Made by a program: the position numbers and the translations under genes. The notes beneath the pieces are model-generated. The model was not told the origin of the DNA, ran no database searches, and saw only the letters and a program-made list of their open reading frames with translations. A stretch of DNA of 64,000 bases, taken from positions 2,974 to 66,973 of the forward strand of contig CAINUM010000063.1 of NCBI GenBank assembly GCA_903853785.1, given 5' to 3'. Below, piece after piece: positions 17,328 to 19,141 of the stretch (position 1 is the first letter of the stretch; each line of letters opens with the position of its first letter). The stretch is from Candidatus Magasanikiibacteriota bacterium (GTDB lineage Bacteria; Patescibacteriota; Patescibacteriia; Magasanikbacterales; GWA2-37-8).

Positions 17328-17356
17328 TTGATTTTTTCAAATATCATTGGTATACT
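17328..17356 (+). promoter_or_regulatory. sigma70-type promoter of GC-rich element A
   Basis: TTGATT-17nt-TATACT. The GC-rich block begins about 8 nt after the predicted +1. Confidence 0.5.
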
Positions 17357-17370
17357 TTTTTTGTTTGATG

Positions 17371-17725
17371 CCTGTTGCAAGAGCACAGGAAATCCAGTCT
17401 ACAACTTGGAGGTTTCGATGAAGTTGATCGCACACGCTGTCCATATTCCATTTTTGTTCTGTCTGCTCGGCGGGGTTCGTCTTTCAGCAGTGATCTGCCC
17501 CCCCATCTCGCTGGTTCCGTCCAGCGACCCGTGGCCGCGAATGCCGCAGAACACCGATCGTCATCGTGGTCGGCGTGAGTTCGTGTCGGCGGTCGCCAAC
17601 GCCCAACGCATCGCTCAGCGCAACTCCAATGGGTGCCGCCGCCGCTAGCCGGCGCTGAACCCTTGTTGGTATCAAACCCCGCTGTGCGTCGACTAATCCA
17701 AAGGAGTAGTCCGGCGCACACATAC
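17371..17725 (+). ncRNA. GC-rich structured-RNA candidate A (unknown family). Contains a possible 77-aa sORF at 17417..17650 preceded by GGAGG
   Basis: About 355 nt at roughly 60% GC in a roughly 35% GC genome. Own promoter and terminator. The 3' hairpin TGCGTCGACTA-ATCCAAAGGAG-TAGTCCGGCGCA (17685..17718) is conserved, with covariation, in element B. Confidence 0.45.
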
Positions 17726-17756
17726 TTTAGACTCAAGTTATTGTCTCTAGAGAAAG

Positions 17757-17792
17757 ATAAAAAATTCCAATTGAATGTTGGAATTTTTTGTT
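17757..17792 (+). terminator. Rho-independent terminator after element A
   Basis: AAAAAATTCCAA-TTGAATG-TTGGAATTTTTTG, a perfect stem plus U-run. Confidence 0.6.
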
Positions 17793-17853
17793 TGCCAAAC
17801 TTTTTATGTATGATATACTTTCATTATTAAACAATGATTTAAATAATTATTTT

Positions 17854-18693
17854 ATGTCTGAAGTATCAAGTGAAGACAAAGCTAAACAAGCGGAATTCAA
17901 AGCACCAACATTCGAAAAAAAAACTTCTTCAAAAGAAGTACAGCTTTTGGATTCAAAATATTTTCAAGCAATGAATCGACTTTATCAATTACAAAATAAA
18001 GTAGGAAAAGAAAGTATTCCCCAAGCGATTTTGGATAATAAAGACTTGAAAGCAGTGGTGGATGAAGTGCTGGCCGACGCCAGATATAATCCTGAAGGCA
18101 AGAAAATAGAGGATGTAGATTTTAGCTTAGTAGATGATAAAAAAACAAACAAATTAGGTGTACTTGGAAAGAATAAACAAGCAAGAACTAGTTGGAATAA
18201 AGATAATCCTTTTTATCGTGCATGGGTTAAAGATGCAAAAGATATTATGCCTGAAGCAGGAGAAGATATTGAGGATGTATTGCCAGACATTTCGGATGTT
18301 GGACCAGTTGAACCAATTATCAGCGAAGACGATAAGCAAACGGTGGCAGAGGCGGATAGTGCAAAAATTATAGATATCAGATCTAGAATAAATGATTTTA
18401 CAAAGTCCGAAAAAGCATTTTTTAATAGTGAACACGATGAGATCGCCCCTGCTTCTACAGCGGAGGAATTGGCTCAAGCTAAAAAGATTTTAGGATCAGA
18501 TCAAGATGATGGAACTTATCGTTCAGGTCAAAGTATTACACCGGGTGGTTCGACAAAGACTTGGCTGGAGAAAGGGTTGTTGGCAATAGGAGCTAAAAAA
18601 TTGGGTGAAGCAATCGCAAGAAGTAATAAAAAAGAGAATCCAATAGCAGAAAAACCAAAGACTGATGATAAAATCGACAAACTCGCAGCCTAG
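17854..18693 (+). CDS. hypothetical acidic low-complexity protein
   Basis: ORF starting MSEVSSEDKAKQ. The track start at 17788 overlaps the upstream terminator, so the ATG at 17854 is preferred. Rich in D/E/K with no motif. Confidence 0.5.
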   Translation: MSEVSSEDKAKQAEFKAPTFEKKTSSKEVQLLDSKYFQAMNRLYQLQNKVGKESIPQAILDNKDLKAVVDEVLADARYNPEGKKIEDVDFSLVDDKKTNKLGVLGKNKQARTSWNKDNPFYRAWVKDAKDIMPEAGEDIEDVLPDISDVGPVEPIISEDDKQTVAEADSAKIIDIRSRINDFTKSEKAFFNSEHDEIAPASTAEELAQAKKILGSDQDDGTYRSGQSITPGGSTKTWLEKGLLAIGAKKLGEAIARSNKKENPIAEKPKTDDKIDKLAA

Positions 18694-18701
18694 AACAAGC
18701 A

Positions 18702-18730
18702 TTGACTTTTTGGCCTAAATATGCTATACT
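18702..18730 (+). promoter_or_regulatory. sigma70-type promoter of GC-rich element B
   Basis: TTGACT-17nt-TATACT immediately followed by the GC-rich block. Nearly identical -10 and spacing to the element A promoter. Confidence 0.5.
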
Positions 18731-19077
18731 CTAGGCTGTTCGGGACAAGGCTACCCAGCCTTTTTCACCCGACGAGTGAGGGGATACATGCGACTCTTTT
18801 TCCGACTCTTTGAGGGATCGAGCTCTCTCGAAGTGGCTTTCGAGCCTAATTCGCGACTCGCAGCCACACAACGAGGTGTTCCGACCAACTGGAACGGCGC
18901 AACCAAAGCGCAACTGCGCATGTTGGATCGGCCAGCCTACTTGCGAGTCAAGAACGGCGAGCCATTCGGCCCCGCGGTCTTCGCGCTGGCCAACTAGCTT
19001 CGGGCGCCGCATCAGCGACACCCACCCCTCTCACCGCGCGCCGACTAATTCGAAGGAGTAGTCCGGCGCGCAAATAC
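18731..19077 (+). ncRNA. GC-rich structured-RNA candidate B (paralog of A). Contains a possible 69-aa sORF at 18788..18997
   Basis: About 347 nt, GC-rich. 3' hairpin CGCGCCGACTA-ATTCGAAGGAG-TAGTCCGGCGCG (19037..19070) is homologous to that of A with compensatory changes. Shares internal GCGCAACT and CTAGC..GGCGC motifs with A. Confidence 0.45.
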
Positions 19078-19111
19078 CTTGTTCATAATTATTTGTGGAT
19101 AGAGTAATTCA

Positions 19112-19141
19112 AAAAATCGCTAAATATGGCGATTTTTTGTT
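19112..19141 (+). terminator. Rho-independent terminator after element B
   Basis: AAAAAATCGC-TAAATATG-GCGATTTTTTG. Confidence 0.65.

Follow-up and report, generated by a model that had tools for sequence, protein, structure and literature searches.

Two short transcription units, here termed A and B, stand out by their base composition in the 64,000-nt stretch of DNA analysed in this work (the window). They lie in an island bounded on the left by a tRNA-Arg(GCG) gene and on the right by a gene just upstream of the tuf/S10 operon, and each combines a promoter, an open reading frame (ORF) for a small protein and a 3' untranslated region (UTR) ending in a terminator (Table 1). Profiling of the G+C content (GC) in 150-nt sliding windows (mean 0.369, standard deviation (sd) 0.06) gave maxima of 0.69 in island A (17369-17764) and 0.67 in island B (18711-19126). 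Both rise more than 5 sd above the mean and are the two highest peaks in the 64 kb, in agreement with a preliminary description of this DNA that had reported two GC-rich blocks on an AT-rich background. All of the sequence features listed in that description were recovered, in place or displaced by at most 1-2 nt: near-consensus promoters with 17-nt spacing, both of which also carry a TG extended -10 element; a Rho-independent terminator after each hairpin (approximately 17755-17793 and 19110-19139); a tRNA-Arg gene beside the units; and an acidic ORF between them. The ORFs that it had placed behind purine-rich Shine-Dalgarno (SD) motifs are likewise present in both units, with the A start at 17418 instead of 17417 and product lengths of 76 aa for A and 69 aa for B.

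Scans of public collections with the hairpin core found near the end of each unit returned four true homologous loci, one in the genome collection and three in the metagenome collection, the latter together with two chance matches (L002 and L004); the viral collection gave a single chance match (L007, the same contig as L004). Further loci came from searches with flanking and cargo proteins, and the corresponding chromosomal locus was recovered from about ten related genomes (L001, L005, L006, L008, L010, L011, L013, L016, L017 and L021). The same flanks but differing cargos are found in L001, L005, L006, L011, L016, L017 and L021, and the tRNA-Arg gene also marks the left edge of the island in L001, L005, L006, L016, L017 and L021. 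Source names in the cluster of the 167-aa protein of the left flank assign these relatives to Candidatus Magasanikbacteria, of the candidate phyla radiation. One locus, L001 (CAZXEV010000057.1), is labelled as an uncultured Gammaproteobacteria metagenome-assembled genome; its gene order agrees with that of the window, the two EF-Tu proteins share 97% identity, and it is probably a mis-binned Magasanikbacteria contig. Against plasmid and phage collections, distant-mode blastn with the whole locus gave no match.

Table 1. Features of the island in the window. SD, Shine-Dalgarno; CDS, coding sequence; pI, isoelectric point; GC1/2/3, GC at codon positions 1, 2 and 3; HP1 to HP3, hairpins of the 3' module; R1, covariance model of that module.
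Feature	Position	Strand	Description or basis
tRNA-Arg (anticodon GCG)	17206..17277	+	Rfam tRNA 62.2 bits, ARAGORN; conserved left anchor of the variable island
tRNA-Arg terminator	17280-17309		terminator scan
Unit A promoter	17328..17356	+	TTGATT-17-(TGg)TATACT, extended -10; promoter scan; kept in A orthologues of L006, L005, L021
Unit A 5'-terminal strand GUUUGAUGCC	17363..17372	+	predicted long-range helix with 17668-17677
Unit A SD-like GGAGG	17408..17412	+	5 nt upstream of ATG
Unit A CDS	17418..17648	+	76 aa, pI 11.8, GC1/2/3 0.62/0.52/0.70
Unit A 3'UTR partner strand	17668..17677	+	predicted to pair with 17363-17372; few bases upstream of HP1
Unit A 3' module, whole	17676-17793	+	R1, 102.6 bits
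Unit A HP1	17683..17720	+	GC-rich bulged hairpin; SD-like apical loop AAUCCAAAGGAGU
Unit A HP2	17725..17752	+	A-U/G.U-rich hairpin between HP1 and terminator
Unit A terminator (HP3)	17755..17793	+	terminator/fold scan
Acidic ORF	17854..18693	+	AT-rich, 279 aa, pI 5.1, GC3 0.25, no SD; promoter 17792-17819
Unit B promoter	18702..18730	+	TTGACT-17-(TGc)TATACT, extended -10; promoter scan
Unit B 5' bulged stem-loop	18740..18772	+	outer stem UCGGG/CCCGA, inner stem AAGGCU/AGCCUU
Unit B SD region GAGUGAGGGG	18774..18783	+	GAGGGG at 18778-18783; predicted partner 19027-19035
Unit B CDS	18788..18997	+	69 aa, pI 10.8, GC1/2/3 0.61/0.49/0.66
Unit B C-rich 3'UTR tract CCUCUCACC	19027..19035	+	anti-SD-like; directly upstream of HP1
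Unit B 3' module, whole	19028-19142	+	R1, 117.4 bits
Unit B HP1	19036..19071	+	GCGCGCCGACUA-AUUCGAAGGAG-UAGUC(C)GGCGCGC
Unit B HP2	19075..19106	+	fold prediction, covariation
Unit B terminator (HP3)	19110..19139	+	symmetric A-run and T-run

Coding capacity and composition of the GC-rich cores

The ORFs of both units were compared across four to five related genomes, taking as marks of protein coding a bias of differences towards the third codon position, a ratio of nonsynonymous to synonymous substitution (dN/dS) well below 1, and indels in multiples of three. Between the window and L006, the differences at codon positions 1/2/3 number 16/8/42 in A (dN/dS 0.08) and 18/14/38 in B (dN/dS 0.15). 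Over all pairs, dN/dS ranges from 0.08 to 0.27 for A and from 0.14 to 0.35 for B, and the indels among the orthologues of each are in frame (3 nt and multiples). Both A and B thus behave as protein-coding genes in all three respects, and it is very likely, on this comparison of orthologous sequences, that the two units encode proteins. The preliminary description had entertained this as its alternative, a 69-77-aa ORF with high-GC codons behind an SD motif, and here it was right. No alignment was obtained between the bodies of A and B, whose proteins are unrelated; its designation of the two as paralogous transcription units therefore holds for the untranslated frame (promoters and 3' ends), not for the GC-rich cores. 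With Rfam 15 at gathering thresholds, the tRNA alone passes over the whole window, with no RNase P, transfer-messenger RNA (tmRNA), 6S, signal recognition particle RNA or large non-coding RNA; at a permissive E <= 10, the best matches in 17280-19200 are terminator look-alikes at E 0.3 or worse, and ARAGORN finds no tmRNA.

Protein A has a hydrophobic N-terminal third, in which an arginine interrupts the hydrophobic stretch, and a basic C-terminal helix, with a grand average of hydropathy (GRAVY) of -0.19. It has three relatives among 5.8 billion proteins, and its AlphaFold2 model is weak (predicted local distance difference test (pLDDT) score 59; helix at residues 50-75). Protein B is hydrophilic. 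A word-indexed homologue search with B came back empty and B is absent from the 5.8-billion-protein collection; exhaustive HMMER searching yielded one orthologue, together with multi-stretch matches to WD40 proteins at E 1e-8 to 6e-4. Residues 15-48 of B (VAFEPNSRLAATQ...W...T.AQLRML) fit the strand pattern of one WD40 blade (VAFSPDGRLLATAS..LWD..TG..LRTL), to which hhalign matched B with a probability of 72% (E 3.5e-5). Unlike WD40 repeat proteins, however, B has a single blade-length segment and no propeller, and Pfam gave it no match at E <= 0.1, PF00400 (WD40) not being reached. Its AlphaFold2 model is poor and uninformative (pLDDT 42), and a profile of B orthologues matched no solved structure in the PDB. 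The WD40-like stretch may be a hint of descent from a repeat protein, as distinct from membership of that family.

A third GC-rich unit, C, occupies an intergenic gap at about 34345-34800, with an ORF at 34449-34685 (78 aa, pI 11.6, GC3 0.63), the promoter TAGACT-17-(TGt)TATAAT and the SD AGAGGGGA. A 10-bp helix is predicted between its 5'UTR and its 3'UTR just past the stop codon. By the covariance model R1 (see below), unit C is without the HP1-HP2-HP3 module. The proteins of A, B and C are all strongly basic (pI 10.8-11.8), and none has a family in Pfam, NCBIfam or PADLOC.

The minus strand of B has a 96-aa ORF, uninterrupted in L001 as well as in the window, which was rejected as a gene: the differences peak at position 3 of the plus frame, which is position 1 of the minus codons. 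Antisense ORFs of this kind stay open because the sequence is GC-rich. Public annotation has called minus-strand ORFs over the true plus-strand genes in L016 (7465-7806) and L017 (7726-7893); gene callers mostly miss or mis-strand the GC-rich units, leaving an under-annotated class of small proteins in candidate-phyla-radiation bacteria. The idea of a diversity-generating retroelement was dropped, A and B being unalignable outside the frame; no dedicated test of it was made.

For comparison, statistics of native genes were drawn from the 62 ORFs of at least 100 aa within the window. Native genes have GC1/2/3 of 0.48/0.34/0.28 (GC3 sd 0.04), and an SD-like 4-mer (GGAG, GAGG, AGGA or GGGG) lies within 25 nt upstream of 4/62, about the chance level, in leaders that are A/T-rich; most genes of the window thus lack an SD, as the preliminary description had noted. 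By contrast, GGAGG, GAGGGG or a similar motif precedes every GC-rich unit examined. It is missing from AT-rich genes of the island itself, among them a NUDIX gene of L001 and the window's acidic ORF (17854-18693). The window contains no rRNA, and the SD motifs of A and B are putative ones. One tiny genome accordingly displays two styles of expression, one AT-rich and without SD, the other GC-rich and SD-led with a covarying UTR frame, and the locus provides a handle on translation initiation in bacteria that largely lack SD motifs, and on RNA-level control of foreign or special genes.

The cargo genes have diverged in step with the 183-aa gene next to them, in which synonymous sites are saturated (proportion of synonymous differences (pS) 0.57-0.80). 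Despite this saturation, cargo GC3 stays at 0.54-0.81. Cargo as diverged as a saturated neighbour and yet GC-rich is hard to reconcile with a recent transfer still awaiting amelioration, and points instead to a GC-richness that is actively maintained, whether by selection or by biased gene conversion. The GC-rich cores probably came from a GC-rich source, and we infer that their origin was foreign.

A shared non-coding frame

Units that end in the 3' module described below carry at least five unrelated classes of cargo: A; B; 'M', a membrane protein of 113-135 aa; 'N', a basic protein of 83-96 aa; and the multi-gene 'D', known from L001 and L017, which in L001 includes a protein with a cytidine-deaminase domain (Pfam). 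The cargos in the common frame span 66-169 aa, and the small proteins of M, N and D have no family in Pfam, NCBIfam or PADLOC. At the B slot of the relatives, a near-identical B-type promoter stands in front of four or five different cargos. What A and B share is a homologous non-coding frame alone, consisting of promoter, 5' leader, SD and 3' module, and this frame is previously undescribed.

The 27-nt hairpin core GACTAATYCRAAGGAGTAGTCCGGCGC occurs exactly twice in the 64 kb, at 17691 and 19043, and 0/100 shuffles match it. The preliminary description had recognised a covarying hairpin here, and the differences between the A and B copies are as it claimed (closing pair T-A vs C-G; T.G vs C-G; UCC/GGA vs UUC/GGA). 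The hairpin is a genuine covarying RNA structure and belongs to a larger module of about 115 nt, running from just before the hairpin to the terminator, which was aligned over 13 and then 17 units. It consists of HP1, which is GC-rich and bulged with a purine-rich, SD-like loop; HP2, rich in A-U and G.U pairs; and HP3, the terminator. The three-hairpin fold is found in every copy (for HP2, in 13/13 modules folded), and helix 4 (HP2) covaries. The upper stem of HP1, GACUA/UAGUC in unit B of the window, has become AUCUA/UAGAU in L011, two pairs being changed on both sides. RNAalifold on a MAFFT alignment gave 38 pairs, 18 of them with compensatory changes.

The covariance model R1 finds 17 copies at E <= 4e-12; within the window these are the A and B copies only, the remaining hits being bare terminators at E >= 0.0016. 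In the R1 alignment 94.8% of cells are paired, as compared with 83.5% in column shuffles and 43-54% in slid controls, 21 pairs are changed on both sides, and the covariation score is 0.407 vs 0.19, with 0/500 shuffles reaching it. This alignment is fitted to the model and favours structure; the independent MAFFT-based RNAalifold run agrees with it. Several G.U pairs persist in the module, which fits a plus-strand RNA and not a DNA cruciform. Most of the 17 copies retain AAGGAG, or a purine run related to it, as their apical loop, and the N-type modules are without an SD-like loop; AAGGAGT itself is as frequent in the window as expected by chance. For unit B, identity between the window and L001 is 0.90 in the 3'UTR vs 0.63 in the CDS. 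The module is absent from Rfam, and HP1-HP2-HP3 constitutes a new 3'UTR motif at the 3' end of GC-rich plus-strand units, including multi-gene D units (L001 and L017). Taken as a whole, the UTR frame is likely to be a functional RNA structure.

At the other end of the transcript, the bulged stem-loop of unit B recurs in 11/11 B-slot units and starts at most 3 bases from the predicted transcription start. Leaders were judged by per-sequence folds, a MAFFT leader alignment having put the M-type inner stem out of register, and both leader stems covary between cargo classes (for example GGCU/AGCC, GGCC/GGCC and GACUG/CAGUC).

GC-rich stem-loops in 3'UTRs, such as repetitive extragenic palindromic (REP) sequences and bacterial interspersed mosaic elements (BIME), block 3' exonucleases, and 5'-terminal stem-loops block decay that depends on the 5' end. 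Units A and B resemble the former in placing a GC-rich imperfect hairpin between stop codon and terminator, and the latter in having a stem-loop that begins at the first transcribed bases. Unlike REP and BIME, however, the module is not dispersed in many copies over the 64 kb; both of its copies there are in the island. It also has a fixed make-up of three hairpins, a loop whose sequence is conserved, and an association with GC-rich cargo.

The two ends of the mRNA are also predicted to meet. In unit A, the 10-bp helix between the 5' terminus and the 3'UTR has a pair probability of 0.97 in a full-length partition-function fold, and of 0.97-1.0 in 4/4 orthologues. It shows compensatory changes (U-A to C-G in L005, G.U to A-U in L021), it outperforms shuffled partners in the duplex test (p = 0.0003-0.005), and no 3' segment from any other unit class pairs as well as the cognate one. 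This is a 5'-3' long-distance interaction of the kind found in hok and aapA mRNAs. In unit B, pairing of the SD with the 3'UTR appears in both the minimum free energy (MFE) and the centroid structures, with a mean pair probability of 0.75. The C-rich tract is present at the equivalent place in B and M units, and pairing between the initiation region and the 3'UTR is predicted in 11/11 units of the B slot, across CDSs of 204-408 nt. Both the roughly 115-nt module and the 5'-3' closure represent new RNA elements, and R1 can be used to mine metagenomes for further copies.

Proposed fold-back of the mRNA and competing explanations

Taken together, these observations lead us to favour, with moderate confidence, a reading in which A and B are independent genes for small basic proteins, located in a variable island of Magasanikbacteria and sharing a non-coding frame through which the mRNA would fold back. 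In A, the 5'-terminal 10 nt would pair with the 3'UTR tract just upstream of HP1; in B, the SD would pair with a C-rich tract at the equivalent place. The mRNA would thereby be closed, with both ends protected, and the ribosome-binding region would be masked until the fold opens, HP1 protecting the masking tract instead of permitting its trimming. That the frame in this way stabilises the mRNA and gates translation is a more tentative proposal, built on the predicted folds, and we would place it somewhat short of an even chance.

Such an arrangement has precedents in toxin mRNAs of the hok/aapA type, in which the SD is masked by a 5'-3' long-distance interaction (PMC6733600); in the aapA mRNA, a CU-rich tract far downstream does the masking (PMC6733600). 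Units A and B resemble the hok/Sok and aapA/IsoA systems in carrying a small ORF on its own transcript, closed by a 5'-3' interaction, and in their highly structured and stable full-length mRNA, which for A and B is predicted. Unlike in hok and aapA, a very stable GC hairpin follows the masking tract, which 3' trimming therefore cannot remove; the products have 69-135 aa and are not all hydrophobic; the 3' module also ends multi-gene D units; and an antisense RNA gene is not detectable. Relative to known kinds, A and B would represent a variant of fold-back-regulated small-protein mRNAs, set in a tRNA-adjacent island.

Several points weigh against the fold-back reading, however. The transcription starts at about 17363 (A) and 18738 (B) are predictions from promoter geometry. 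For B, M and N, the SD/3'UTR duplexes are not exceptional when compared with shuffled and non-cognate 3' segments (p = 0.02-0.93): B of the window has p = 0.51, and among the B-slot units only L016 reached p = 0.009. The B-slot pairing may therefore simply reflect G-rich facing C-rich composition, and SD masking in unit B is best described as a suggestive, composition-level tendency of the predicted folds. No such fold-back is predicted for the larger GC-rich operons of the island (deaminase and D units), and synonymous-codon shuffles give only a weak, if consistent, hint that structure within the CDS is selected, negative in 8/8 units at z -0.4 to -2.1. HP1 lies downstream of the masking tract, which makes a hok-like activation by 3' trimming implausible; protein B is not hydrophobic; and a sigma-70-like promoter on the minus strand is found neither in A nor in B, with none conserved in 14 related units, though a promoter of another type or a trans-encoded RNA may exist. 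Furthermore, a published survey found no anti-SD motif in about half of the 16S genes of Parcubacteria (PMC9297842), so the SD motifs of this organism may not act as SDs. Finally, no donor of the GC-rich cores was found, A having three relatives and B one.

Among the other explanations, the one put forward in the preliminary description, that A and B are discrete paralogous structured RNAs of about 350 nt whose ORFs are by-products of GC, now appears highly improbable. Fold stability against shuffles would agree with it (z -3.9 for A and -5.0 for B), as would the conservation of the B UTRs (nucleotide identity 0.83 and 0.79, vs 0.63 for the ORF), a native MFE slightly under that of synonymous-codon shuffles in 8/8 units, and the tendency of GC-rich sequence to keep long ORFs open in several frames, antisense included. 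The minus strand of B, however, folds equally well (z -5.4), so that the z-score mainly reflects composition, and the bodies of A and B are unalignable with no Rfam family. What refutes a non-coding RNA reading of the cores is the protein-like change of the ORF orthologues, with substitutions piled on codon position 3, dN/dS of 0.08-0.35 and in-frame indels, a pattern which that description had itself named as counting against its proposal. In addition, the same frame carries other cargos, a Pfam cytidine-deaminase domain among them. GC-rich islands in AT-rich genomes are thus not automatically structural RNAs. The 3' module might instead be the product, as a 3'UTR-derived small RNA of about 115 nt whose SD-like loop pairs with pyrimidine-rich targets. 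Small RNAs derived from 3'UTRs end in terminators, as the module does, and both the better conservation of the B module over the CDS and the retained purine loop would suit this role; an internal promoter or processing signal was not identified, however, and the loop is missing from N-type modules, which leaves this possibility quite improbable. We give equally little credence to the structured-RNA reading and to a DNA cassette system in which HP1 serves as a recombination site, attC-like or IS200/IS605-like, for swapping cargos. A constant frame around unrelated cargos at one chromosomal slot, the imperfect pairing of HP1, which has a bulged base and lies at the 3' end of every unit, and a serine recombinase gene 6 kb away in L010 are what such a system might look like. 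Yet G.U pairs are conserved in HP1, in HP2 and in the fold-back helix of A, and read from the opposite strand they would turn into A.C mismatches; as DNA repeats, the two arms of the A helix agree at only 7-9 of 10 positions; and HP1 is without the R and L boxes of attC (GTTRRRY/RYYYAAC). Each unit has its own promoter and terminator where integron cassettes are promoterless, the neighbours are housekeeping genes with no integrase (by synteny with L016 and L017), and the frame varies with the cargo class, so that sharp identical junctions are not seen.

Two further explanations are unlikely, to about the same degree. One is that the cores are recently acquired, neutral foreign DNA from a GC-rich organism such as a host, lodged between native promoters and terminators. 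This would fit a GC raised at all three codon positions, an SD use foreign to the genome, the likeness of B to one blade from WD40 proteins, a family typical of GC-rich bacteria, and an island adjoining a tRNA gene with cargo that varies between genomes. However, both proteins are under purifying selection; their orthologues are as diverged as the saturated neighbour gene, with the same relative distances, which makes the residence old, and GC3 has not decayed toward 0.28. Moreover, collections of 1.8-5.8 billion proteins, like those of plasmids and phages, yielded no close donor sequence, and the UTR frame covaries with each cargo class. The other is a type I toxin-antitoxin system, in which A and the membrane cargos are toxic, the mRNA is inert by fold-back, and an unseen antisense or trans RNA acts as antitoxin. 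The match of the A 5'-3' helix to the hok/aapA design (PMC6733600), the hydrophobic N-terminal segment of A, the M and X cargos, which are clear membrane proteins, the strong promoter of each unit and the variable multi-unit locus all point that way. Against it, A has 76 aa and an arginine inside its hydrophobic stretch, and B (69 aa) and N are hydrophilic; type I peptides are toxic, hydrophobic and typically shorter than 60 aa. No promoter-like site was found on the minus strand of A or B, and none is conserved in the orthologues; with HP1 in place, the 3' trimming on which hok and aapA activation depends would be prevented; a 2.6-kb metabolic operon in L008 is followed by a related 3' end; and PADLOC gives no match.

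Beyond the fold-back reading itself, it is conceivable, if improbable, that the lineage keeps a gene 'compartment' under RNA-level rules, GC-rich, SD-led and set in the fold-back frame (5' stem-loop, 5'-3' closure and an HP1 whose loop mimics an SD), within an AT-rich genome that has otherwise no use for SDs. Its GC would be actively maintained as part of the mechanism and would not be a leftover of transfer. In one version of this idea, the mRNAs may persist in a silent form and be opened by a specific trigger; the boldest has messages or proteins tailored to a GC-rich, SD-using partner cell on which the episymbiont-like organism would depend.

Surroundings of the island

The island shares with other tRNA-adjacent islands an atypical composition, a position beside a tRNA gene and a gene content that varies among related genomes. 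Unlike these, it has no integrase or direct repeats at the locus, its cargo is old and under purifying selection with a composition that has not drifted, and each gene sits in a homologous RNA frame. The annotated loci L016 and L017 are syntenic with the window and identify its neighbouring genes as housekeeping ones (DprA, Pth, Der, LytR and the tuf operon). The acidic ORF is an island gene inserted between A and B, outside the GC-rich system; it has no match in Pfam, NCBIfam or PADLOC, and its protein cluster is single-membered. L005, L006, L011 and L021 have the next promoter immediately after the A terminator. No terminator lies between the stop of the acidic ORF and the -35 element of unit B (18693-18702), and read-through from this ORF into unit B is possible. 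The terminators at 17280-17309, 17757-17793 and 19110-19139 are symmetric, each with A-run, stem-loop and T-run, and the model scores them weakly on the minus strand too; judging from their sequence, they could stop transcription from both directions.

The right-flank gene (19206-19757) encodes a conserved protein of 183 aa, the C-terminal half of which is extremely acidic. Its N-terminus is weakly similar to the Phd/YefM antitoxin (Pfam E 1e-4, below threshold), and in every locus the gene follows immediately after the variable small basic proteins, so that the acidic protein might conceivably be a partner of the basic cargos. In relatives, the island upstream of tuf also carries larger GC-rich genes of nucleotide metabolism (L008 2735-5395 and 5949-6535; L010 5965-6701), encoding GTP cyclohydrolase II, OMP decarboxylase, guanylate kinase and a cytidine-deaminase-family protein. 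The last of these genes has its own conserved 3'UTR of about 170 nt, and at the end of the 2.6-kb metabolic operon of L008 the 3' module is weakly matched (E 7e-5). Far from the island, GGA/GGT triplets run through 45101-45155 of the window and mark the 5' end of a minus-strand ORF (45087-46628), where the coding strand specifies a proline-rich, low-complexity N-terminus.

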